A DNA stretch of 49,189 nt from a virus (taxonomy: Duplodnaviria > Heunggongvirae > Uroviricota > Caudoviricetes), in IMG/VR virus record IMGVR_UViG_3300045988_153230; one strand, 5' to 3'. Of this stretch, positions 1,380 through 45,046 are shown in pieces (positions within the stretch are counted from its first letter, which is position 1; each line of letters opens with the position of its first letter). A program made the translations under genes and the position numbers. The notes under the pieces were generated by a model. It was not told the DNA's origin, searched no databases, and worked only from the letters and a program-made list of their open reading frames with translations.

Positions 1380-1630
1380 GTAAGTTAAATAAAGAAAGTT
1401 TTAATAAAAGAAAGTGATTTTGCATTTATTTGTTTAGTGCATCTATTATAAAAAACCATTTGCATATACATATCAAAACTGTGGATAACTTGATTAGTTG
1501 ATACCTGTAAAGGCGATATTTTTGCTGAGTTCAGGTTTAGAGAAAATTAATTTAGCTTGTTTTTTGAACAGCTATTTTTTTGCGACGTAGATAATCCTCC
1601 GGTAAAACCGGATTCATCATTCAGGTGAGT
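1380..1630. other. Putative plasmid origin (oriR-like) downstream of repA
   Basis: ~250 bp AT-rich non-coding stretch immediately 3' of repA with a consensus DnaA box (TGTGGATAA, complement TTATCCACA) at 1480..1488. IncFII-type replicons place ori just downstream of repA. Confidence 0.5.
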
Positions 1631-2478
1631 TAATGTTGGAGTGATTTCCAGGTCTTTCTTAGCCTGTTATAACGCTGCTCAACGAGGGATCGTAAATATG
1701 CAAGGTCAGCACCAGGATACATGCCATCAGCAAATTCCTGGCTAACCTCTCTAGTGATTTGATGACGAAGTTCGGCCTCTCCCTTTTCCTGAACAAGACG
1801 CGCAGCTCTCTCCGCTGCTTTCTGTTTTGCCTTTATCTCTCTGGCCGTCTTCCTCTGACGCCATACATTCTCCATCTGCTCCTGAATAACAATACGCTTA
1901 TAATCAGCCTCCGTTATCGCTTTTTTAAGCCGTTCACTATTCTTCGCATTGAAGTAATTAAGTTTCTGGCTAACCGCACGTCTCCATGCTTGTTCAGTAA
2001 TACCAACGGTTTCCAGCAGTTGATCACGAATCTCTATTTTCGCTGGCCAATACTGTTTATTCACCCGATCCCAGCGACGTTCATAATCAATAAAACCTAA
2101 CGCTTTCAGTTGCGACAACGCCCTTGTACAGCGCGTTATAGACTTGTTCCCAGCTTCGGATACGGTAGACAGGCCGCAAAAATCAGCCAACGCCTCAGCA
2201 CTAGCCAGAACCCGCTTAGAAATGATGTTTACATGGTGCAAAATCGCAGCGATCACAGCATTAATCGCCCGACGACGATGCTCGTTTATCCGGCGCTTCC
2301 GCTCTGACGGTTGATTAACGTAGAACGCAACCTCACACGTAAGATCACGCCCATTAATGCGCTGTAAAGCATCAGATAACACCAGCGGCAGCTTGTGCGT
2401 ATGGTGCTTTGGAGGCTGGAACTCCGGCGACAAATTACAAACGTAAGCTGAACGTAGAGACGGCATTGGTCTATCCAT
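1630..2478 (-). CDS. repA: Plasmid replication initiator, IncFII RepA1-like
   Basis: Conserved core ...RRRAINAVIAAILHHVNI...FCGLSTVSEAGNKSITRCTRALSQLKALGFIDYE... and basic C-terminal region match my recollection of R100/R1 RepA1. ATG at 2478 chosen (MDRPMPSLRSAYV...); the ORF track extends to 2607 with no better start. Confidence 0.75.
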   Translation of the reverse strand: MDRPMPSLRSAYVCNLSPEFQPPKHHTHKLPLVLSDALQRINGRDLTCEVAFYVNQPSERKRRINEHRRRAINAVIAAILHHVNIISKRVLASAEALADFCGLSTVSEAGNKSITRCTRALSQLKALGFIDYERRWDRVNKQYWPAKIEIRDQLLETVGITEQAWRRAVSQKLNYFNAKNSERLKKAITEADYKRIVIQEQMENVWRQRKTAREIKAKQKAAERAARLVQEKGEAELRHQITREVSQEFADGMYPGADLAYLRSLVEQRYNRLRKTWKSLQH

Positions 2479-2522
2479 ATGTTCGCTCTTGCGTCCACGG
2501 AAAACCAACGTATAATGGGAGT

Positions 2523-2598
2523 TGTCGAGGCGCCCATGGTTAGTTGTTGGTTTTCCGTGGATGTCGCAAGAAGCCCGCAGATTTATCTGCGGGCTTTT
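2523..2598 (+). ncRNA. Candidate CopA-like antisense RNA to the repA leader
   Basis: Plus-strand promoter-like TTGCGT-N16-TATAAT (2489..2516) followed ~55 nt later by a perfect hairpin plus T-run (GCCCGCAGATTTATCTGCGGGCTTTTT, 2571..2598), antisense to the region just upstream of the repA start. A 16-bp inverted repeat (2490..2505 / 2545..2560) sits in the same region. Confidence 0.4.
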
Positions 2599-2643
2599 TG
2601 TTTCCATATCTGGTCACTTTCCAACCAGACACCCACAATCATA

Positions 2644-2788: not shown

Positions 2789-3343
2789 TCAATGATTCCC
2801 AGCCGGAAACCTGCGGTAAAGCGTGGATAAGGTAACATCGAAGATAATCGCTATCCGCTTACGTGAAACACCATTCGCAATAAGCCTTCCGATCTGTTCC
2901 CATTGCTCTGGTGCCAGCTTTGAGCGACGTCCTCCTATCCTGCCGTTAGCCCTTGCCACCGCCAATCCTGCACGCGTTCTTTCAATCATATTTTCCCGCT
3001 CCATCTCTGCGACTGCACTCAGCATCGTGTAGGCAAAGCGGCCAATTGAAGTGCTGATTTTTATCCCTTCCGTAATTGAAATAAACTCAATGTCGTTTGA
3101 TAAAAAATGGTTAAGTAAATCAACAAGATGAATCAGAGAACGCCCCATTCGGTCCAGCTTCCAGACAATAACCGTATCGCCCGGTCGTAACACCTTCAGT
3201 AGCTTATCAAGTCCTGGTCGTTTTGATTTAGCACCGGATATTTTATCTTCAAAAATCCGGTCACATCCTGAACTCCTGAGCGCCTCCAGTTGTAATTCCA
3301 AATTCTGGTCAAAAGTTGACACCCTCGCATAACCATATTGCAT
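2789..3343 (-). CDS. Serine DNA invertase, Gin/Pin/Cin/Hin family
   Basis: 184 aa; N-terminal GYARVSTFDQ with catalytic Ser, and C-terminal ...GRIGGRRSKL...VTLSTLYRR HTH, closely resembling Mu Gin/e14 Pin as I recall them. Adjacent to an invertible tail-fibre segment. Confidence 0.9.
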   Translation of the reverse strand: MQYGYARVSTFDQNLELQLEALRSSGCDRIFEDKISGAKSKRPGLDKLLKVLRPGDTVIVWKLDRMGRSLIHLVDLLNHFLSNDIEFISITEGIKISTSIGRFAYTMLSAVAEMERENMIERTRAGLAVARANGRIGGRRSKLAPEQWEQIGRLIANGVSRKRIAIIFDVTLSTLYRRFPAGNH

Positions 3344-3407
3344 ACTTTCTAAACCGCGATTGTTGCTAAAAGCGGGAAAAAATATCGTTCAGACGACACA
3401 GAGGCAA

Positions 3408-3433
3408 TTCGCAAAAACCTCGGTTTACAGGAA
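3408..3433. repeat. gix-like recombination site, left end of invertible segment
   Basis: Reverse complement reads TTCCTGTAAACCGAGGTTTTTGCGAA, matching my recollection of Mu gix (TTCCTGTAAACCGAGGTTTTGGATAA) over its first 20 nt. Inverted relative to the site at 6461..6486. Confidence 0.8.
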
Positions 3434-4420
3434 ACGGTAAACAGGGCTGGTAACGCCGTGCAAAAAAATGGCGATACCTTGTCCGGTGGGCTTACTTTTG
3501 AAAATGACTCAATCCTTGCCTGGATTCGAAATACTGACTGGGCGAAGATTGGATTTAAAAATGATGCTGATGGTGACACTGATTCATACATGTGGTTTGA
3601 AACAGGCGACAACGGCAATGAATATTTCAAATGGAGAAGCAAACAAAGCACCACAACAAAGGACCTGATGAATCTTAAATGGGATGCTTTGTATGTTCTT
3701 GTTAAAGCTCTTTTCAGCAGTGAAGTAAAAATATCGACAGTCAATGCACTGAGGATATTTAATTCATCTTTTGGTGCTATTTTTCGCCGTTCTGAAGAAT
3801 GCCTTCATATCATCCCTACCCGAGAAAATGAGGGGGAAAATGGCGATATAGGGCCACTACGCCCCTTTACGCTTAATCTCAGAACTGGTCGCATAACTAT
3901 GGGGCATGGTCTGGATGTTACAGGAGATATATTTACAAACCGTTTTTTAATTAACAGCAGTACAGGCATGTGGATTAATATGCGTGACCAGAACGTTATT
4001 ATGGGACGTAATGCGGTATCCACTGATGGTGCTCAGGCTTTGCTCCGTCAGGACCATGCCGACCGCAAATTTATGATTGGCGGTCTGGGAAATAAGCAAT
4101 TTGGCATCTACATGATTAATAACTCAAGGACAGCCAATGGTACCGATGGTCAGGCGTACATGGATAATAACGGTAACTGGCTTTGTGGTGCGCAAGTTAT
4201 TCCCGGCAATTATGGCAATTTTGACTCACGCTATGTGAGAGATGTCCGACTTGGCACACGTGTTGTTCAATTGATGGCGCGTGGAGGGCGTTATGAAATA
4301 GCCGGACACGCACTTACCGGATTAAGAATTATTGGTGAAGTTGATGGCGATGATGAAGCTATCTTTAGGCCGATACAAAAATACATCAATGGCACATGGT
4401 ATAACGTCGCACAGGTGTAA
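3408..4420 (+). CDS. Alternative tail-fibre C-terminal segment (Sv'-like), silent in this orientation
   Basis: Frame is open through the gix site and encodes LGLQETVN, the same peptide encoded at the gix site inside the tail-fibre gene (EYLGLQETVN). No own start; the ORF track's start at 3458 is GTG. Followed directly by a Tfa paralog. Confidence 0.7.
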
Positions 4421-4951
4421 ATGATGCAGCATTTAAAAAATATTAAGTCTGGAAATCCTAAAACGAAAGAACAATATCAGCTAACAAAGAATTTTGATGT
4501 TATCTGGTTATGGTCCGAAGACGGTAAAAACTGGTATGAGGAAGTAAATAACTTTCAGGACGACACCATAAAGATTGTATACGACGAAAATAATATTATT
4601 GTTGCCATAACCAAAGATGCCTCAACGCTTAATCCCGAAGGCTTTAGTGTCGTTGAGATTCCAGATATAACAGCCAATCGTCGTGCCGATGATTCAGGGA
4701 AGTGGATGTTTAAGGATGGATCTGTAGTTAAACGGATTTATACGGCAGACGAACAGCAACAACAAGCCGAATCACAAAAGGCCGCATTGCTTTCCGAAGC
4801 TGAATCAGTCATCCAGCCGCTGGAACGCGCTGTCAGGTTGAATATGGCAACAGACGAGGAACGCACACGACTGGAAGCATGGGAACGCTACAGTGTTCTG
4901 GTCAGCCGTGTGGATACGGCAAATCCTGAATGGCCACAAAAGCCTGAATAA
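4421..4951 (+). CDS. Tail fibre assembly protein (Tfa/U'-like), alternative copy
   Basis: 176 aa; N-terminus [25 protein letters not shown]... is paralogous to the convergent ORF 4980..5513. Typical position after a tail-fibre C-terminal segment. Confidence 0.85.
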
Positions 4952-4956
4952 AAATT

Positions 4957-4976
4957 AAGGCCCGCTATCGGGCCTT
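4957..4976. terminator. Bidirectional hairpin between convergent Tfa genes
   Basis: AAGGCCCGCTATCGGGCCTT perfect stem-loop between the two convergent Tfa ORFs. Confidence 0.5.
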
Positions 4977-4979
4977 GTC

Positions 4980-5513
4980 TCATTCCGGTTTTTCTGGAAA
5001 CGTTACTGGCAGGATGGAGGTATCTGTAGATTCGACTTTCTGTGCATATAGCATCCACTCGGTTAATTTCTGTTTATTCTCATCGGAAATGATGCCCAGC
5101 CGTAGCTGTGAGTCCCACAGTTGGGTTTTATCCCTGACAAGTTGCAACAGGCTTTGCTTTTCATTCTCTGCCTGCTGCCTCTGTTCTTCCTCGGTGTAAG
5201 TTCGCTTTATCACTACGCCATCTTTGAACATCCATTTACCCGAAATATCAGCCCGGCGATTTGCTGTAATATCAGGTAATTCAACGACGCTTGCGCCTTC
5301 CGGATTAATTGCTGAAACATCCTTTTCAATACAAATAATAACGCCGTTACGGTCATAGACCATTTTCAATGTGTCTGGCTGGAAATTCTTTTGTTCCTCA
5401 TACCAGTTTTTTCCATCATCTGAATAAAGCCATTTGATGTTAAATTGCTTTGTTAGCTGGTATTGCTCTTTTGTTTTAGGGTTGCCAGCAGTAATGTTTT
5501 TTAAGTGCATCAT
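4980..5513 (-). CDS. Tail fibre assembly protein (Tfa/U-like), expressed copy
   Basis: 177 aa; [24 protein letters not shown]...; immediately downstream of the tail-fibre gene. Confidence 0.85.
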   Translation of the reverse strand: MMHLKNITAGNPKTKEQYQLTKQFNIKWLYSDDGKNWYEEQKNFQPDTLKMVYDRNGVIICIEKDVSAINPEGASVVELPDITANRRADISGKWMFKDGVVIKRTYTEEEQRQQAENEKQSLLQLVRDKTQLWDSQLRLGIISDENKQKLTEWMLYAQKVESTDTSILPVTFPEKPE

Positions 5514-5515
5514 CG

Positions 5516-7834
5516 TTAAATACTCCCCGCGTTATACCACGTCCCATTAATGCAATACTGAATTGGCCTTGCCTGAGTTGTATCAATTAATTCATCACGG
5601 TTTCCGTTAACTGAACCCGTAACGACATAACCTGACCTGTCAGACCAGCCGGGACCATTCCATGTCTGAACAGATGACAGACCGCCCAGGCGAATACCTG
5701 TAATAAACCTTGAGTTACATTCTGCCTGCGTATATGCACCAACATCCCCCGCAGAGGGTTTGCGGGTTGTGGTGTAAAACTCTGACCAGTTAGCTTCAAA
5801 GCCATAACCATCACGCGCTGAACGATAAAAGATACCGCCGTTCTTATAATTCACGCGGAACTGTACAGCAGGGCAACTCCCCGCATTCATATTAAAGTGG
5901 AGGATTAATGTCGATGCACCACTGATATCTGCATCATAAACACCGCTATTCCAGTTCCAGCCAACAGCTTTATCATTTGCAACCCTGCTTCCTGTTTGCC
6001 CTAAAGCAAATGCAGGCTGCTGGTTTTTCGTATTGTAGTCTCTTCGCCAGCCAGGAGCATAAGCATCACCATGATTAATATAAGTGAATTGAGCGTTAGT
6101 GATTCCGCCGCCGCTGGACGTACTCGGAGTAGTAACGCGTATGGTCATTGCGCCGCGAGTGCCAATAACTTCCACCACAGCACCTGCAAGACAAATATTT
6201 CCGCAACCTGTATCTGTAATGACCTTATTATTTGCATAAGCCCATGAGCCTTTGCACATCCAGTAAGGATGGTTAAATGCTCCCTGACTCTCCAGCCACG
6301 AAATAAATTGCGCGGTTGTCCAGACCTGACTATCGCCACCAATATTCAGCCATGGGCTGTATGCGCGGCAGGCACCAATATTTTTGGTGAAGGTATCTTT
6401 TCCTGGAATATCTGCGCCGTTCTGGTTTTTCTGTAATGCGCCAGAAGCCTGATTTACCGTTTCCTGCAAACCGAGGTATTCGATAACGGCAGCAACGGTC
6501 GATTTCGCAAGAATATCCCGCCCGACTTTTGTCAGGGTTGCCAGGCTGGCGACATCATTCCCCGTAAAATACGGAAACTTGTCTGCCGAAGTAGCAAGCC
6601 CGGCCAGCGCCGTCAGGGTGGCATCTTTCGGTTGCTTACCCGCAAGCGCGTTAGTCATGGTGGTCGCAAAATTCGGGTCGTTGCCCAACGCCGCAGCCAG
6701 CTCGTTTAGCGTATTCAGTGCGTCAGGCGACGAGTCCACGAGGGCAGCGATCGCAGCCATAACATAAGCCGTGCTTGCGATCTGAGTATTGTTAGTACCT
6801 TTTGGCGCAGTTGGTGTTGTTGGTGTTCCGGTCAGCGCAGGACTGTTTAAGGGCGCTTTCTTGTTCGTTTCATCCATTACCGCCTTAACAGCTTTTGGTG
6901 TCGCAGCCAGCGTTTCAGACGTGCTGTTAGTGGCACTACTGAGCTGAGTTATTCCCCTTACAGTCAGTGAAGCTACAGGCACATTTGTTATCTGCTCCCA
7001 CGAATGCGTGTGATTGGACGGAGCCTTTCCGGCCGCAAGATCATACGCTGCCTTAACAGCCTTTGGTGTTGCTGCTAGCGTTTCAGACGTGCTGTTGGTG
7101 GCACTACTGAGCTGAACAATCCCTTTTCGCGCTGTGGTAGCGTCCTGTGCGGTGTATTTAGCGTTAGCAAGGTCATATGCTGCCTTAACAGCCTTAGGCG
7201 TCGCAGCAAGCGTTTCAGACGCGCTATTGGTGGCGCTGCTAAGTTGAACAAAGCCTTTTGAGGTTAAAGTTGCATCAGGATGATTACGTGATTGCTCATG
7301 TTTCACAATGGCTTGCTTAAGCCGCTTTGCTGAAACAGCAAGGGAATCATCTGTACCTGCCTCAATTTCTTGTTCATTAGCAAATCTTGCCACCCCAACA
7401 ACAGTTTCGGTCGCGGGAGGATTAATAAACTCAATATCACCAAATGTAATATTTTTAGTATCAAGAGTCTTAATTGCTATATCACTTGATATTAAAGCGA
7501 TAGTAGATGATGCTTTATTTATTATTGCTTGTTCTTGTGAGTATACAGCAAACAACGCCCCCTTATTCGTATACAATCCTATTGTATGGACAACATACTC
7601 ATCTTTACTATCATCCTTCGCTGTTACATGAATTGTATCAGGGGAAACAACTTTGCCACCTATTGTGGTAAGTCGTTTTATTTCGTTTGTTATATTTGTT
7701 TGTGAGGTTGACGTGACATAATATCTACTACCTAAACCAACAGAAACAATCTCAACTTTATTTGTTCCTGTTTTGTTGGCATTAACCAACTCCTGACGCC
7801 CGGCGTCAGTCATCGTAAATAATAATTTACTCAC
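5516..7834 (-). CDS. Tail fibre protein (P2 gpH / Mu S-like), constant N-terminal part plus invertible C-terminal part
   Basis: 772 aa; N-terminus MSKLLFTMTDAGRQEL resembles P2 gpH N-terminus (first codon is GTG). Contains three ~70-bp internal repeats (about 6885..7250) and the gix site at 6461..6486 inside the coding sequence. Confidence 0.85.
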   Translation of the reverse strand: MSKLLFTMTDAGRQELVNANKTGTNKVEIVSVGLGSRYYVTSTSQTNITNEIKRLTTIGGKVVSPDTIHVTAKDDSKDEYVVHTIGLYTNKGALFAVYSQEQAIINKASSTIALISSDIAIKTLDTKNITFGDIEFINPPATETVVGVARFANEQEIEAGTDDSLAVSAKRLKQAIVKHEQSRNHPDATLTSKGFVQLSSATNSASETLAATPKAVKAAYDLANAKYTAQDATTARKGIVQLSSATNSTSETLAATPKAVKAAYDLAAGKAPSNHTHSWEQITNVPVASLTVRGITQLSSATNSTSETLAATPKAVKAVMDETNKKAPLNSPALTGTPTTPTAPKGTNNTQIASTAYVMAAIAALVDSSPDALNTLNELAAALGNDPNFATTMTNALAGKQPKDATLTALAGLATSADKFPYFTGNDVASLATLTKVGRDILAKSTVAAVIEYLGLQETVNQASGALQKNQNGADIPGKDTFTKNIGACRAYSPWLNIGGDSQVWTTAQFISWLESQGAFNHPYWMCKGSWAYANNKVITDTGCGNICLAGAVVEVIGTRGAMTIRVTTPSTSSGGGITNAQFTYINHGDAYAPGWRRDYNTKNQQPAFALGQTGSRVANDKAVGWNWNSGVYDADISGASTLILHFNMNAGSCPAVQFRVNYKNGGIFYRSARDGYGFEANWSEFYTTTRKPSAGDVGAYTQAECNSRFITGIRLGGLSSVQTWNGPGWSDRSGYVVTGSVNGNRDELIDTTQARPIQYCINGTWYNAGSI
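6461..6486. repeat. gix-like recombination site inside tail-fibre gene, right end of invertible segment
   Basis: TTCCTGCAAACCGAGGTATTCGATAA, near-identical core to the site at 3408..3433 in inverted orientation. Confidence 0.8.
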
Positions 7835-7864
7835 GCTTAATTCCTTGAATTAACAAATTGCGAA

Positions 7865-8446
7865 TTAGCACTCGCCAATTAATCGTACATAGGACACAGG
7901 CTGACAAGCACCAACAATACCAACACCACCAGAAACATTGGCAGCTTGCGAAAATGTAAATAATGTTCTTGCCGACTTTGCGCTCTTGATACTTCTTAAC
8001 GTATCTTCCAACATCTCTTTCGAAGGAACGGCACCATCAAAAGAGTTAATCGAAGCAACAATTGAGGCTGTATATGGTTCGCCAGGTGGTGATGTTTCAA
8101 ACCATTCTGTTATATTTACCTCTCCACCCAAGCTATTTACTACATCTTCAACCGCTGCCCTTGTACCCTTTATTCGCTTTGTTCGTATTATTGATTTAAA
8201 AACAGAACGCTTTAACGATACAGGCCAACTATCTCTCCATGTATCAGCATTCCATTGCCAAGCTAAATGATCGAGAACAACTGAGTCCAGGTTATCAACA
8301 ACACTATATATTTCTGTCTTATATATTAAATTGTTAATTGCTTGTAGTTCATCATCGATAGCTTTCGACATAGCTATCACGTTGGGATCTCTAGCTAAGT
8401 TAGGAGGTAAAACATCCAACAAGCTAACATTAAAGATATCAGCCAT
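7865..8446 (-). CDS. Phage tail protein I (P2 gpI-like)
   Basis: 193 aa beginning MADIFNVSLLDVLPPNLARDP..., positioned between baseplate J and the tail fibre as in P2. Confidence 0.7.
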   Translation of the reverse strand: MADIFNVSLLDVLPPNLARDPNVIAMSKAIDDELQAINNLIYKTEIYSVVDNLDSVVLDHLAWQWNADTWRDSWPVSLKRSVFKSIIRTKRIKGTRAAVEDVVNSLGGEVNITEWFETSPPGEPYTASIVASINSFDGAVPSKEMLEDTLRSIKSAKSARTLFTFSQAANVSGGVGIVGACQPVSYVRLIGEC

Positions 8447-9563
8447 CCTCTAACCCCGCATACTGGCAATTTATATTTCTCTCTCTGGCGACCTGCGTCT
8501 CTCCAACCACAGTAAATACAGGACTTGATATTTCTAATCTTTTAGCCCCAGCATTTTTTAAACGTTGAATAATTTCATCTGGATTTATATCTCTTCCCAT
8601 AACCGAACGTTGCCATTGTTTATACTCATCAATAGCTTTCTCAACCTCACTTTGAATTAAAGTTGTTCTGTTTTTGTCCGATGAGTTAATCCAGTATTTA
8701 ATTATTATATCGTATTCAATGCTCTCTGGTTTCTTAACAAGAACTTTATCTGTGAATGGTCGAATATTAGTTGCAGAGAGAACGCTATTTATCTGCTCTA
8801 ATAGTTCATCAGAAGGTATATCTCCGTTCTCTAACAAAGAACGGATTTCTACAGTTCCGGGCGATGGTGTATATACATTCACATCTTTTATATTCTGATT
8901 GGCTGTTCTTGTCCAATATTTATAAGAATCCTCCGGCCCTGCTGTAGACAGTTTTTCCGGCGACAGTTTTATTCTTTCAGCATAATTATCATCTGACTCT
9001 GTATCAGCACCAGAATTAGATGTTGTTAGATTCCTTACGCTGGAAACATACGGCAACGGAGTCACCAACTCGTTTATTTGCCCAGGTAAAAAGCCATTCC
9101 CCGATAAGCCAGGTATAACAGCATATCCTGAGACTGTACCAACTGTTTTCCCAGCTGGTATTTCCAACAAAACATCTGTTTGGAAAATAACACTATTTCC
9201 AGTTGAAATTTGAGTGCCAGCAGGTATTGTATATATCCCCGATAATTTTGTTGACAGCTTAAACTCAAATGTAGTCAAGGCAGATTGAGCTTCCAGCCTA
9301 GGCGTATCCGTCAGATAGCCTATATGGTCGAGATATTCACCCCCACCATATGTAAGAAGGTTTTGTTTTGCAGAAAAATCGATAGCTTTTCTTTGCTGTA
9401 TAATAATCTCACACAATGACAAGATGAATAATCTACGTGGATCAGCAGGTGCTAATGTTTCACCTGTTATACTCTCAAAAGCCCTGATTGAACGAGTTGT
9501 TATATCAGTCGGGTTAGAATCTGCGAAAGTAATATCTGGCAAACCACCACGCGGCAACGTCAT
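8439..9563 (-). CDS. Baseplate protein J-like
   Basis: 374 aa, size and position (between W and I) as for P2 gpJ / T4 gp6-type baseplate wedge proteins. Confidence 0.7.
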   Translation of the reverse strand: MTLPRGGLPDITFADSNPTDITTRSIRAFESITGETLAPADPRRLFILSLCEIIIQQRKAIDFSAKQNLLTYGGGEYLDHIGYLTDTPRLEAQSALTTFEFKLSTKLSGIYTIPAGTQISTGNSVIFQTDVLLEIPAGKTVGTVSGYAVIPGLSGNGFLPGQINELVTPLPYVSSVRNLTTSNSGADTESDDNYAERIKLSPEKLSTAGPEDSYKYWTRTANQNIKDVNVYTPSPGTVEIRSLLENGDIPSDELLEQINSVLSATNIRPFTDKVLVKKPESIEYDIIIKYWINSSDKNRTTLIQSEVEKAIDEYKQWQRSVMGRDINPDEIIQRLKNAGAKRLEISSPVFTVVGETQVARERNINCQYAGLEDG

Positions 9564-9880
9564 TCTCTAACTCCTATCACAAGTTTTGGCCTAATAAAAC
9601 CATCAGAAACGTCCGTTCTTTCAAAAGTAACAGAATGGATAATCGCTCTAGGCTCAAACTCACTAATTTTTTGAATTATTTCTCGTGTTGCTGTAGCAAT
9701 AAAAATTGGACTGGGGCTATCAACAAGACTTGAATTAACTCCTAATTTTCTGGCATATGGTACAGTGCCAATCTGAGTATTAATAATAGTAGAGACATTT
9801 TGCAAAACTTCTTCTACAACTGTTTTGGGCGACCAATCAATCGAGTAAGAAGGTGATGATATGGTAAACGTATTATTCAT
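9560..9880 (-). CDS. Baseplate protein W (GPW/gp25-like)
   Basis: 106 aa, overlapping start/stop with neighbours, position upstream of J. Confidence 0.65.
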   Translation of the reverse strand: MNNTFTISSPSYSIDWSPKTVVEEVLQNVSTIINTQIGTVPYARKLGVNSSLVDSPSPIFIATATREIIQKISEFEPRAIIHSVTFERTDVSDGFIRPKLVIGVRE

Positions 9881-10344
9881 AATAATTTACCTAACGCACT
9901 TCTAGTTTTTGACTCTATATTGCCAGCAATATCAACTAATGCTTCTTTCAGAGAGGTCTGTCCGACTTCCTGTAATTTAATGCCGACGATAATCACTCGC
10001 GGATTCCCAGTTGGACCGAAATAAGTCCATGATTCCTCTATATCTGTAATTATAAAATTACCAAAATACTGAATACCAATTACAACAGGATTTACTTCCT
10101 GAATTGATTGCATTGTCCTAAGTAATGAAAGCGCAGCCAATGGAACAATGCCAAGTGTTGTATCCAACCGCATATTAAAACTAACTTCATCCAGATCTGG
10201 ACCTATATCCTCCAGAACAGGTTTAAGCCCAATAACATCATGGCGCGCTACACGACGCTTTGACGTCCTTTTAAAATTGTTGAACGTATTCACTACTATT
10301 GATGAGGCAACAAAAGGCATTGTACCAAGCATACCCACAATCAT
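9877..10344 (-). CDS. Phage tail protein, gpU-like (tentative)
   Basis: 155 aa; N-terminal MIVGMLGTMPFV... and overall size resemble P2 gpU as I recall it; the Mu gp46 family is an alternative. Confidence 0.45.
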   Translation of the reverse strand: MIVGMLGTMPFVASSIVVNTFNNFKRTSKRRVARHDVIGLKPVLEDIGPDLDEVSFNMRLDTTLGIVPLAALSLLRTMQSIQEVNPVVIGIQYFGNFIITDIEESWTYFGPTGNPRVIIVGIKLQEVGQTSLKEALVDIAGNIESKTRSALGKLL

Positions 10345-32274: not shown

Positions 32275-32350
32275 TGGTGGCCCCTACCGGATTTGAACCG
32301 ATGACCGTGCGATTATGAGTCGCCAGCTCTAACCACTGAGCTAAGGGGCC
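32275..32350 (-). tRNA. tRNA with CAU anticodon (Ile2/Met type, ileX-like)
   Basis: Minus-strand sequence GGCCCCTTAGCTCAGTGGTTAGAGCTGGCGACTCATAATCGCACGGTCATCGGTTCAAATCCGGTAGGGGCCACCA folds by eye into acceptor, D, anticodon (loop CTCATAA) and T arms with encoded CCA; the 5' half matches E. coli ileX as I recall it. Confidence 0.85.
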
Positions 32351-43253: not shown

Positions 43254-43503
43254 GAGAAGGTGACGGCCTCCAGCGCCAACTGTTGGCCGTCGCGACACAA
43301 CAAGGGGAATTTGTTATGTCCGAGCAACAATATACACGGTTACTAAAAACTCGTCTAATAGACCTCAAACGGCTGCAAGCTGGTCGCTTATTTGCCCTGC
43401 TATCCACCAGGCCAGAATGGGTACGTGAAGCAGTTCTGAAAGGCTTAATGCGCTCAAGCGTTTAAATTCAACCATAAAAAAGGCCCCCGAAGGGGCCTAA
43501 TCG

Positions 43504-43626
43504 CTACTTGCTGCTAATGTTTATCGTCACATTCAGAGCGTTATCAGTAATCTTCCAACCCTCCCCATGTGGCGTAAACAAAGCTCCAGTAACAACGATA
43601 AAAATACACATGTAGTATTTTTTCAT
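43504..43626 (-). CDS. Small hydrophobic protein (40 aa), candidate type I toxin-like peptide
   Basis: ATG at 43626: MKKYYMCIFIVVTGALFTPHGEGWKITDNALNVTINISSK; a bidirectional hairpin (GGCCCCTTCGGGGGCC, ~43478..43500) follows on the minus strand. Confidence 0.4.
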   Translation of the reverse strand: MKKYYMCIFIVVTGALFTPHGEGWKITDNALNVTINISSK

Positions 43627-43940
43627 TGTGTGGCCCTTACAGGCCGTTTCACGGCATCCCCACCGACGAAAATGACGCGAGAGCAAGCACGCTGTTTGTG
43701 CCTGCGTGGTACGGCAAGTGGATAATCCTTTCCTGAAAGTCAGTGCCCGGGTGCGAATCGGCGGAAAGGCCCCAAGCCATATTACACGTCATACCCTTCA
43801 TAATGAAGGAATAAAAAACGCTTTTATTACATAAGATTACACGTAAATAAGTTAAAAACCTTCATTTTGCATGAGCTAATGAGCTAAATTTTTTTATATG
43901 AATAGTGGACTATTCACCTCAGTTGGGTAAGAATGTAGTT

Positions 43941-44597: not shown

Positions 44598-45046
44598 TTT
44601 TTATCCCCATACTGAATTTTTTCTTGTTCCCGACTTTAACAAAATTCCACAACTCAGGACTGATTGATTCCCTACAGGAACTATACATTCCCATTTTTAG
44701 CATATCAAGAAAATTAAAAGCCCCGCATTCAAACCCACACTATGTGGTTTAGTCTGTTAAAATCCCTCTGTATTGACATAAATGCGCCATTGGTGGACAC
44801 TTTCCGAGCCGTAGCAAAATCTACGGTCGGGATTGGAACCCCGATAATCATCATGGCGCATACCGCGTTAGCGGTTTTTTTATGCGTAAAGCACTGCTAC
44901 ACCCAAATTATGGTGGGGCGTGCGGGGGAGTCGTAAGACTCGCCGGATTCCATGGTGACCGGTAGTTCCAACCCTGTACGTCTCACCACCCAATGATTGG
45001 AACCAGACGGTGGTGAGTATCCTTAACCTTTAAGGGAACTATCACC

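Follow-up and report, generated by a model that had tools for sequence, protein, structure and literature searches.

The G segment of phage Mu is known to have a role in host range (PMC10434027). Hin and Pin of e14, and probably the invertase described here, belong to one subclass, the Fis/enhancer-dependent invertases that act on 26-bp sites (PMC3798978). For phage-plasmids with an invertase and a tail fibre, the literature that we searched yielded P1/D6-like cases only; publications on vB_YpM phages dealt with different ones, such as the 32-kb peduovirus HQ103, and the preprint on vB_EcoM-613R2 mentions neither invertase nor fibre. Here we analyse a stretch of viral DNA of 49,189 nt, hereafter the window, and propose, with a probability of about 0.88, that a Gin-type site-specific inversion switch sets which of two receptor-binding tips is carried by the tail fibre of a myovirus phage-plasmid. 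It is an ordinary Mu G-type switch in a 49-kb E. coli phage-plasmid, and its kind is well known. The features on which this proposal is based are collected in Table 1.

Table 1. Features of the invertible tail-fibre locus and its surroundings, in window coordinates
Feature	Position	Strand	Remarks
RepA, IncFII family	1630-2607		
DNA invertase, 184 aa, small serine recombinase	2789-3343	-	Pfam Resolvase 3.6e-44 and C-terminal HTH_7 2.9e-13
Candidate recombinational enhancer (invertase nt 22-85)	3259..3322	-	Putative; two Fis-like 15-mers
gix-like site, invertase-proximal	3408-3433	+	TTCGCAAAAACCTCGGTTTACAGGAA; TC core 3420-3421; 23/26 identical to Mu gix
Silent variable fibre C-terminus (Sv')	3434..4420	+	Amino acid identity: P7 Sv' 89.8%, Mu S variable part 69%
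Silent tail-fibre assembly chaperone, Mu U type	4421..4951	+	Caudo_TAP 5e-37; 97% amino acid identity to Mu U
GC-rich hairpin between the convergent sets	4957..4976	.	Terminator-like on the - strand; also present in Mu and P7
Expressed tail-fibre assembly chaperone, Mu U' type	4980..5513	-	Caudo_TAP 4.6e-36; amino acid identity: Mu U' 96%, P7 U' 96.6%
Expressed variable fibre C-terminus (Sv), receptor-binding part	5516..6460	-	Amino acid identity: Mu S' C-terminal part 96.5%, P7 Sv 98.7%
gix-like site within the fibre gene	6461-6486	-	TTATCGAATACCTCGGTTTGCAGGAA; core 6473-6474; 23/26 identical to Mu gix
Constant N-terminal fibre part Sc, ~449 aa	6487..7834	-	Three Phage_fiber_2 repeats, Pfam PF03406, 1.7e-59; direct repeats D1

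The two crossover sites lie in inverted orientation, and a preliminary description made from the letters of the sequence had placed both of them correctly, the second within the fibre coding sequence. The TC core of both is the core of Mu gix. In the 49-kb window there are two site matches and no more, against a chance expectation of 0.01, and none of 100 shuffled sequences contained at least two. Multiple inversion of the Min or shufflon kind, with more than two sites, was considered and rejected, as a degenerate search with three mismatches and a loose core scan returned only these two; the locus is therefore a simple switch with two states. Both sites sit inside a 55-nt inverted repeat. From crossover point to crossover point the segment measures 3053 bp, in keeping with the earlier estimate of ~3.1 kb. 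The peptide LGLQETVN, said to be common to the two junctions, is indeed encoded in frame at either of them, and ...EYLGLQETVN... reads across the junction in both states.

Between the sites lie two convergent sets, each consisting of a fibre C-terminus and its own chaperone. The present fibre ORF (7834..5516, 772 aa) contains the second site, and the silent Sv' is in frame with its own site but, as now oriented, is without a promoter-linked N-terminus. Inversion in silico yields an intact fibre ORF of 786 aa followed by the other chaperone, so that the exchange of C-terminus and Tfa sets foreseen in the preliminary description is supported: the fibre ORF is unbroken in either state, and two Caudo_TAP genes are present. 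These chaperones are 58% identical to one another, and the two fibre tips share just 38% identity across their last 71 residues. The fibre and chaperone proteins of the window have 90-99% amino acid identity to P7 Sv', to Mu S', U and U' or to their P7 counterparts, and NCBIfam offers no specific family for fibre, chaperones or invertase. Sc is specific to the phage-plasmid family of the window and is 97-98% identical among its members in either segment orientation. We interpret the window as now expressing the Mu G(-)-type (S'/U') set, with the hairpin between the sets as the likely terminator of the fibre operon in this orientation. By analogy with Mu, the two tips would bind different LPS receptors.

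How would such a switch operate? The fibre operon may be read from the baseplate genes through Sc (7834..6487) and the crossover site into the segment, which in the present orientation would fuse Sc to the Mu S'-like tip and add the U'-like chaperone. The invertase would bind the two inverted 26-bp sites and Ser9 would make staggered cuts at the central TC; rotation of half the tetramer and religation would then leave the 3053 bp flipped. After the flip Sc would be in frame with the other tip, giving the 786-aa fibre, and the matching chaperone would follow.

The invertase gene adjoins the segment at 65 bp and is transcribed away from it, with a site-to-start spacing as for Mu gin. Enzymes of this class measure about 185-195 aa, with a nucleophilic Ser9/10 and a C-terminal HTH. 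The protein shares 54% identity with Gin and 55% with Cin, and its best PDB match is Gin 3uj3 (E 1e-61, residues 2-181 aligned). R7, S9, D64, R65 and R68 are invariant among the three enzymes; the catalytic Ser9 is intact, as the preliminary description had maintained. Annotations of its relatives read hin or pinE. Two Fis-like 15-mers in the 5' end of the gene, GTGTCAACTTTTGAC at 3322..3308 (invertase nt 22-36) and GTTCAGGATGTGACC at 3273..3259 (nt 71-85), match in position the G-N13-C 15-mers of gin and fall inside the annotated P7 cin enhancer at nt 19-86. Third positions in invertase nt 19-86, taken as a gauge of synonymous-site conservation, showed no clear increase (0.50 vs 0.33 in the comparison with gin, 0.27 vs 0.30 in that with cin). 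On the model of gin, cin and hin, in which a cis-acting enhancer with two Fis sites occupies the 5' part of the gene, inversion would need Fis and an enhancer here, and likewise DNA supercoiling. A sigma-70 scan for the invertase promoter was no richer than shuffles and gave no match upstream of 3343. Inspection by eye brought up a sub-threshold TTGCCT-17-TATTTT, the only candidate for that promoter.

The only slightly unusual part of the locus is this divergent invertase with its rebuilt helix-E 'phenylalanine switch'. The helix-E motif is FAYTML in the window enzyme (A104, Y105, T106, L108) vs FFFHVM in Gin and Cin, where Hin F105, F106, H107 and M109 are equivalent to Gin F104, F105, H106 and M108. 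The departure concerns residues related to regulation, not catalysis.

In close relatives of the window the segment occurs in both orientations; these relatives are ~48-kb IncFII-RepA phage-plasmids and include the Yersinia phages vB_YpM_39/41/44. Junction probes of PLSDB matched six records with the segment oriented as in the window and 15 with it flipped. In pP136-7 a segment 97.4% identical to that of the window lies flipped between flanks that are 98-99% identical. There a 99.4%-identical copy of the silent Sv' of the window is fused to Sc and expressed, and the annotated fibre gene has the length of 786 aa that in-silico inversion of the window gives. Moreover, a crossover before site position 20 predicts particular hybrid sites, and exactly these are present in the seven loci L004, L006, L007, L008, L009, L011 and L012 of relatives. 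In the relatives the outer half-site remains with the flank and the inner half moves with the segment, and a single A/G marker at site position 20 has travelled with the segment in all seven flipped or hybrid cases. The marker and the outer half-sites together place the crossover within site positions 11-19, the 9 bp at the outer end of a 55-73-bp repeat, with the TC core included. Additionally, in record NZ_CP032086.1 of E. coli ATCC 25922 the two orientations occur as tandem copies, whose sole difference is a 3071-nt inversion at 99.97% identity; as both orientations are found in one assembly, inversion is ongoing in that strain. The lack of any inverted form together with a dead invertase, which the preliminary description had named as its refutation, is contradicted by these relatives, flipped as they are with the predicted hybrid sites, and by the two orientations in the ATCC 25922 assembly.

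It has to be asked whether the window copy itself still switches. A Mu G homologue might be a frozen relic, no longer self-switching, with a divergent invertase that is inactive or very weak, the orientations seen in relatives being old or catalysed in trans by the invertases of other prophages; we regard this as improbable. In its favour, A104, Y105 and L108 of the window enzyme stand at positions where single changes in Hin impair inversion, F105A giving no inversion, F106Y a trace and M109L poor inversion (PMC4513852). Other G-like cassettes, presumably with invertases, are also common: among 5426 complete E. coli genomes, 2020 contain them, and inversion in the relatives could be catalysed in trans by such chromosomal prophage invertases. 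An identity to Gin of only 54%, third-position conservation that is not distinctly higher at the candidate enhancer, and the lack of a clear invertase promoter count on the same side. However, of the 120 nearest cluster representatives 90 keep FAYTML, even at identities as low as 68%, which points to a functional clade under selection and not to decay. All through the family the invertase ORF and the two sites remain intact, at 98-99% conservation, and it is the cassette between the sites that varies; the paired orientations within the ATCC 25922 assembly likewise speak against a relic. We take it as probable that the window copy flips now, by its own invertase.

The inversions in relatives might also be attributed to RecA-dependent homologous recombination between the short inverted repeats instead of a site-specific reaction, an explanation that we hold to be very improbable. 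The arms do share identical bases, 10 + 14 in the window and ~73 bp in the ATCC 25922 plasmid, and two sibling E. fergusonii isolates have IncY P1-like plasmids that differ by a 4.3-kb inversion flanked by ~0.6-kb repeats. Repeats of 25-30 identical bases, however, are very poor RecA substrates, and the confinement of the crossover to site positions 11-19 in all seven flipped or hybrid relatives is at odds with it. The E. fergusonii inversion had been considered as independent evidence that the invertase clade is active; we set it aside as non-discriminating, because with repeats of 0.6 kb homologous recombination is equally possible. Site-specific inversion by a Gin-type enzyme is the reading that we retain.

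A further proposal concerning this enzyme is put forward tentatively, as one that is rather doubtful. The invertase may represent a natural conserved clade, distributed over prophages and phage-plasmids of Escherichia, Citrobacter and Salmonella, in which the Hin switch and gating residues F105, F106, H107 and M109 are jointly A, Y, T and L. If active, such enzymes may differ from Gin, Cin and Hin in dimer-to-tetramer remodelling, Fis dependence or inversion rate. The conservation of the FAYTML clade and the flipped relatives suggest that it is active; in that case nature would have supplied, ready made, a means of testing the gating model. The clade is a modest lead for students of serine invertase regulation.

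What are the consequences of a flipping segment for this phage-plasmid family? A textbook Mu G-type host-range switch carries, as such, little mechanistic weight. The family of 48-49-kb phage-plasmids is common in E. coli, the reference strain ATCC 25922 included, and members have been recovered as infectious phages on Yersinia pestis; the family makes virions, vB_YpM_39/41/44 having a backbone 99% identical to the window. Host range should depend on segment orientation. In addition, the flip can cause separate assemblies of a single plasmid to disagree, or to be wrongly joined as dimers. The switch does sit beside a plasmid replicon, that of the IncFII RepA, as had been described. The cassette is a module exchanged among Mu-like, P1/P7-like and P2-like phages and the phage-plasmids to which the window belongs.

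Comparison with other inversion systems sets the locus in its place. Hin of Salmonella flagellar phase variation flips a promoter, whereas the window system flips coding ends, and the window enzyme has other residues at the helix-E positions by which the Hin dimer is locked. Min of p15B and the R64 shufflon (Rci) also exchange C-terminal ends of adhesins or fibres through inversion, but they use many crossover sites, the shufflon with a tyrosine recombinase, and the window has two. The preliminary description had assigned the switch to the Mu G / P1 C type. The assignment stands with a small correction: in layout the locus is Mu-like and not P1-like. Like Mu, the window has the order Sc, gix, [Sv-U / U'-Sv'], gix, 65-75 bp and an invertase transcribed outward. 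The DNA of the Mu G segment is 89-95% identical to the window segment, and the S', U and U' proteins of Mu are 96-97% identical to their window counterparts. Mu differs in its constant part, ~170 aa as opposed to ~449 aa with Phage_fiber_2 repeats in the window, and in Gin, which is only 54% identical to the window invertase and has the other helix-E motif. Furthermore, the second tip of the window has more in common with P7 Sv' (90%) than with Mu S (69%), and Mu is a transposable phage whereas the element that carries the window switch is a plasmid-prophage of the IncFII-RepA kind and has a P2-type baseplate. P1 and P7 are likewise plasmid-prophages with an invertible fibre cassette, the C segment, whose inner 3 kb are 93% identical to the window segment. 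In these phages, however, cin overlaps cixL and its transcription runs towards the segment, whereas the window invertase is transcribed away; their segment is ~4 kb with ~0.6-kb repeats in place of the short repeats of the window, and their cix sites occupy a more upstream position in S (LGLRELG), whereas the window has the Mu-type switch point.

All elements of the fibre cassette lie where the preliminary description had placed them: its coordinates for the sites and ORFs proved correct in the ORF map, the repeat search and a scan with a gix pattern. A search of the first 11 kb for inverted repeats gave, as the longest, one that pairs 3414-3468 with 6426-6480. Scanned with a degenerate gix pattern, the 49-kb window has exactly two sites, at 3408-3433 (+) and 6461-6486 (-), against a chance expectation of 0.01. 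Each site is identical to the Mu gix (TTATCCAAAACCTCGGTTTACAGGAA) at 23 of 26 positions and shares its central TC; between the two sites the sequence varies in the outer halves and at inner position 20, which is A or G. The silent ORF has an open frame back through its site, reading IRKNLGLQETVNRAG, and the fibre gene reads VIEYLGLQETVNQAS at the junction. Inversion in silico at the core dinucleotides yields an intact 786-aa fibre with the other chaperone directly after it, in agreement with the earlier proposal that a flip exchanges the expressed tip and chaperone for the silent ones. The silent-tip frame is also open for 18 further codons upstream of the invertase-side site (3353-3407, +; AKSGKKYRSDDTEAIRKN); this stretch may be a remnant of the constant part of another fibre, left at cassette acquisition. 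Both plus-strand ORFs fall between the recombinase and the 177-aa gene in the ORF map.

Features of the fibre cassette and its neighbourhood, in window coordinates
Feature	Position	Strand	Basis or remark
repA	1630-2607	-	ORF map; IncFII-family RepA by domain search
Recombinase (invertase), 184 aa	2789-3343	-	ORF map; Pfam Resolvase and HTH_7
Silent-tip ORF, 320 aa	3458-4420	+	ORF map
Silent chaperone ORF, 176 aa	4421-4951	+	ORF map; Pfam Caudo_TAP
GC-rich hairpin	4957-4976		Between the convergent sets; also kept in Mu and P7
Expressed chaperone, 177 aa	4980-5513	-	ORF map; Pfam Caudo_TAP
Fibre gene, 772 aa	5516-7834	-	ORF map; three Phage_fiber_2 repeats
P2-type baseplate genes I, J, W, V	After fibre gene		Next gene P2 gpI-like

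Where the repA ORF has its leader or 5' end, a 16-bp perfect inverted repeat (2494-2509 and 2546-2561) adjoins a 16-bp hairpin (2567-2600). No Rfam family matched these repeats (2494-2600), which may serve the IncFII-type replicon in copy control or as antisense elements. Rfam matches above the gathering score were obtained for ryfA (43476-43774, -), isrK (44808-44881, +) and C4 antisense RNA (44906-44993, +), the last of which suggests, by analogy with P1 and P7, an immI-type immunity region in this phage-plasmid. A tRNA-Met (CAT) at 32275-32350 (-) has a counterpart of ~95% identity in P1, P7 and RCS47, where the annotation is Ile or Met.

Is the segment found in both orientations in nature? 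Three relatives, pP136-7, pO145_122715_2 and pRHB38-C13_5, match the window's flanks at 93-99% identity in a single direction and its 3-kb segment in the opposite one, at up to 97.4% identity over the whole length of the segment. In pP136-7 the silent tip of the window (99.4% aa identity) is expressed and the expressed tip is silent. A crossover at the core predicts the hybrid sites TTCGCAAAAACCTCGGTTTGCAGGAA and TTATCGAATACCTCGGTTTACAGGAA, and every flipped relative has exactly both, which confines the exchange to site positions 11-19, core included. When two junction probes of 626 nt each, the first built on the window's orientation and the second on the flipped one, were compared with PLSDB at a coverage of at least 80%, six records matched the former and 15 the latter, one flipped junction matching at 625/625.

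The strongest natural case for flipping among relatives is NZ_CP032086.1 (E. coli ATCC 25922 pL25922_3), a 94-kb linear record that consists of two tandem copies (L010 and L011) of a 48.5-kb phage-plasmid. The flanks of the copies are 99.94-99.95% identical and run in the same direction, while the 3071-nt segment, 99.97% identical, runs in opposite directions. The record is probably an assembly of a mixed population, and its opposite orientations therefore place both states in one culture. Its two 26-bp sites are identical to those of the window, and its invertase flank, taking in the adjacent site and the invertase gene's 5' part, shares 98.8% DNA identity with that of the window. The remaining ATCC 25922 records that were looked at are plasmids of 48,488 bp and, where the match spans the whole region, have the arrangement of L010.

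The invertase shares 54% of its residues with Gin and 55% with Cin, and its closest solved structure is the Gin tetramer 3uj3. The catalytic Ser9, already described as intact, is invariant with respect to Gin and Cin, as are R7, D64, R65 and R68. In helix E, at the positions by which the inactive dimer is locked, the protein departs from Gin, Cin and Hin: residues 103-108 (3020-3037) read F-A-Y-T-M-L, against F-F-F-H-V-M in all three of those enzymes. The S9A and M114V changes in the alignment to 3uj3 set the register from Gin to the window protein. Hin numbering was taken to run one ahead of that of Gin, since the catalytic residue is Ser10 in the former and Ser9 in the latter. With positions matched in this way, the relevant Hin substitutions are F105A, which abolishes inversion, F106Y, which allows a trace of it, and M109L, with which it is poor (PMC4513852). 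Taken alone, these residues would suggest a dead enzyme and a cassette that no longer switches. However, such a frozen relic is unlikely given the intact sites, the ATCC 25922 record with both orientations and the conservation of the motif in its clade. Among the 120 nearest invertase cluster representatives, 90 keep FAYTML (68-100% identity; Escherichia, Citrobacter and Salmonella), which marks it as a stable natural variant with a compensating context, not decay. We infer that the window copy is active.

The best explanation of the switch is the standard DNA-invertase mechanism (PMC3798978; PMC3575834; PMC10434027). Invertase dimers would bind both 26-bp sites, Ser9 would make staggered cuts at the core, and half of the tetramer would rotate before religation, leaving the segment flipped and the fibre tip and chaperone exchanged downstream of the constant part. 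Homologous recombination between the repeats is an unlikely cause of the inversions, because all observed exchanges sit within the outermost 9 bp of a 55-73-bp repeat. Prophage invertases may act in trans, as G-like cassettes are present in 2020 of 5426 complete E. coli genomes; catalysis by the window's own invertase, rather than a chromosomal one, is nevertheless the reading we adopt, provisionally. Inversion may depend on Fis and an enhancer. Fis-like 15-mers lie at nt 22-36 and 71-85 of the invertase gene; gin has such 15-mers at these positions, which in P7 cin fall within the annotated enhancer. This candidate enhancer also encodes the catalytic motif, and third-position conservation against gin and cin shows no clear excess there. 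A promoter scan found none standing out for the invertase.

The window is one of a family of E. coli plasmids of ~48-49 kb that are non-mobilizable and carry an IncFII-type RepA. The structural backbone of the window shares 99% identity with the infectious Yersinia phages vB_YpM_39/41/44, and also with vB_EcoM-613R2 and -473R2, two E. coli phage records of prophage origin. The cassette is mosaic across the family: the variable tips are of at least four or five kinds (relative loci L003, L008, L012 and L013 against window 3434-4420 and 5516-6460), and for some of them identity to the Mu or P7 types is just 45-55%. In each of the three Yersinia phages, which derive from virions, the tip in the expressed position is not of the S' type; vB_YpM_39 has its S'-type tip, 99% identical to Mu S', in the silent position. 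In a close relative, pZ0117EC0148-4 (NZ_CP098182.1; L009), a Tn5403-family Tn3-like transposon (transposase and resolvase; 6642-10307) sits inside one variable fibre part of the flipped segment and cuts the silent tip after 109 aa. The IncY P1-like plasmids of E. fergusonii RHB23-C01 and -C02 (L014 and L015; 95,926 bp each) carry a truncated cin remnant (74 aa) adjoining a 193-aa invertase of the FAYTML clade; these siblings differ by a 4295-bp inversion (99.98% identical) flanked by ~0.6-kb repeats.

At the DNA level the segment (3434-6460) matches the Mu G segment at 89.5-95% identity and, in the P7 C segment, the inner 3 kb at 93%. The expressed tip shares 96.5% identity with Mu S' and 98.7% with P7 Sv, and its chaperone 96% (aa) with Mu U', which puts the window in the counterpart of the Mu G(-) state. 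For the silent tip, identity is 89.8% with P7 Sv' and 69% with Mu S, and for the silent chaperone 97% (aa) with Mu U. Expressed and silent tips share just 38% identity across their last 71 residues, and the two presumably differ in receptor specificity. A literature search found no published description of a switch in this IncFII-RepA, P2-baseplate phage-plasmid family; this host, the long constant part of the fibre and the divergent invertase clade are modest new points. In P7, cin runs into cixL and the repeats are ~0.6 kb; the window instead has the layout of Mu G, its invertase starting 65 bp outside the site and being transcribed away from the segment. This fibre switch belongs to the Mu G / P1 C class, whose module makes up most of its DNA.
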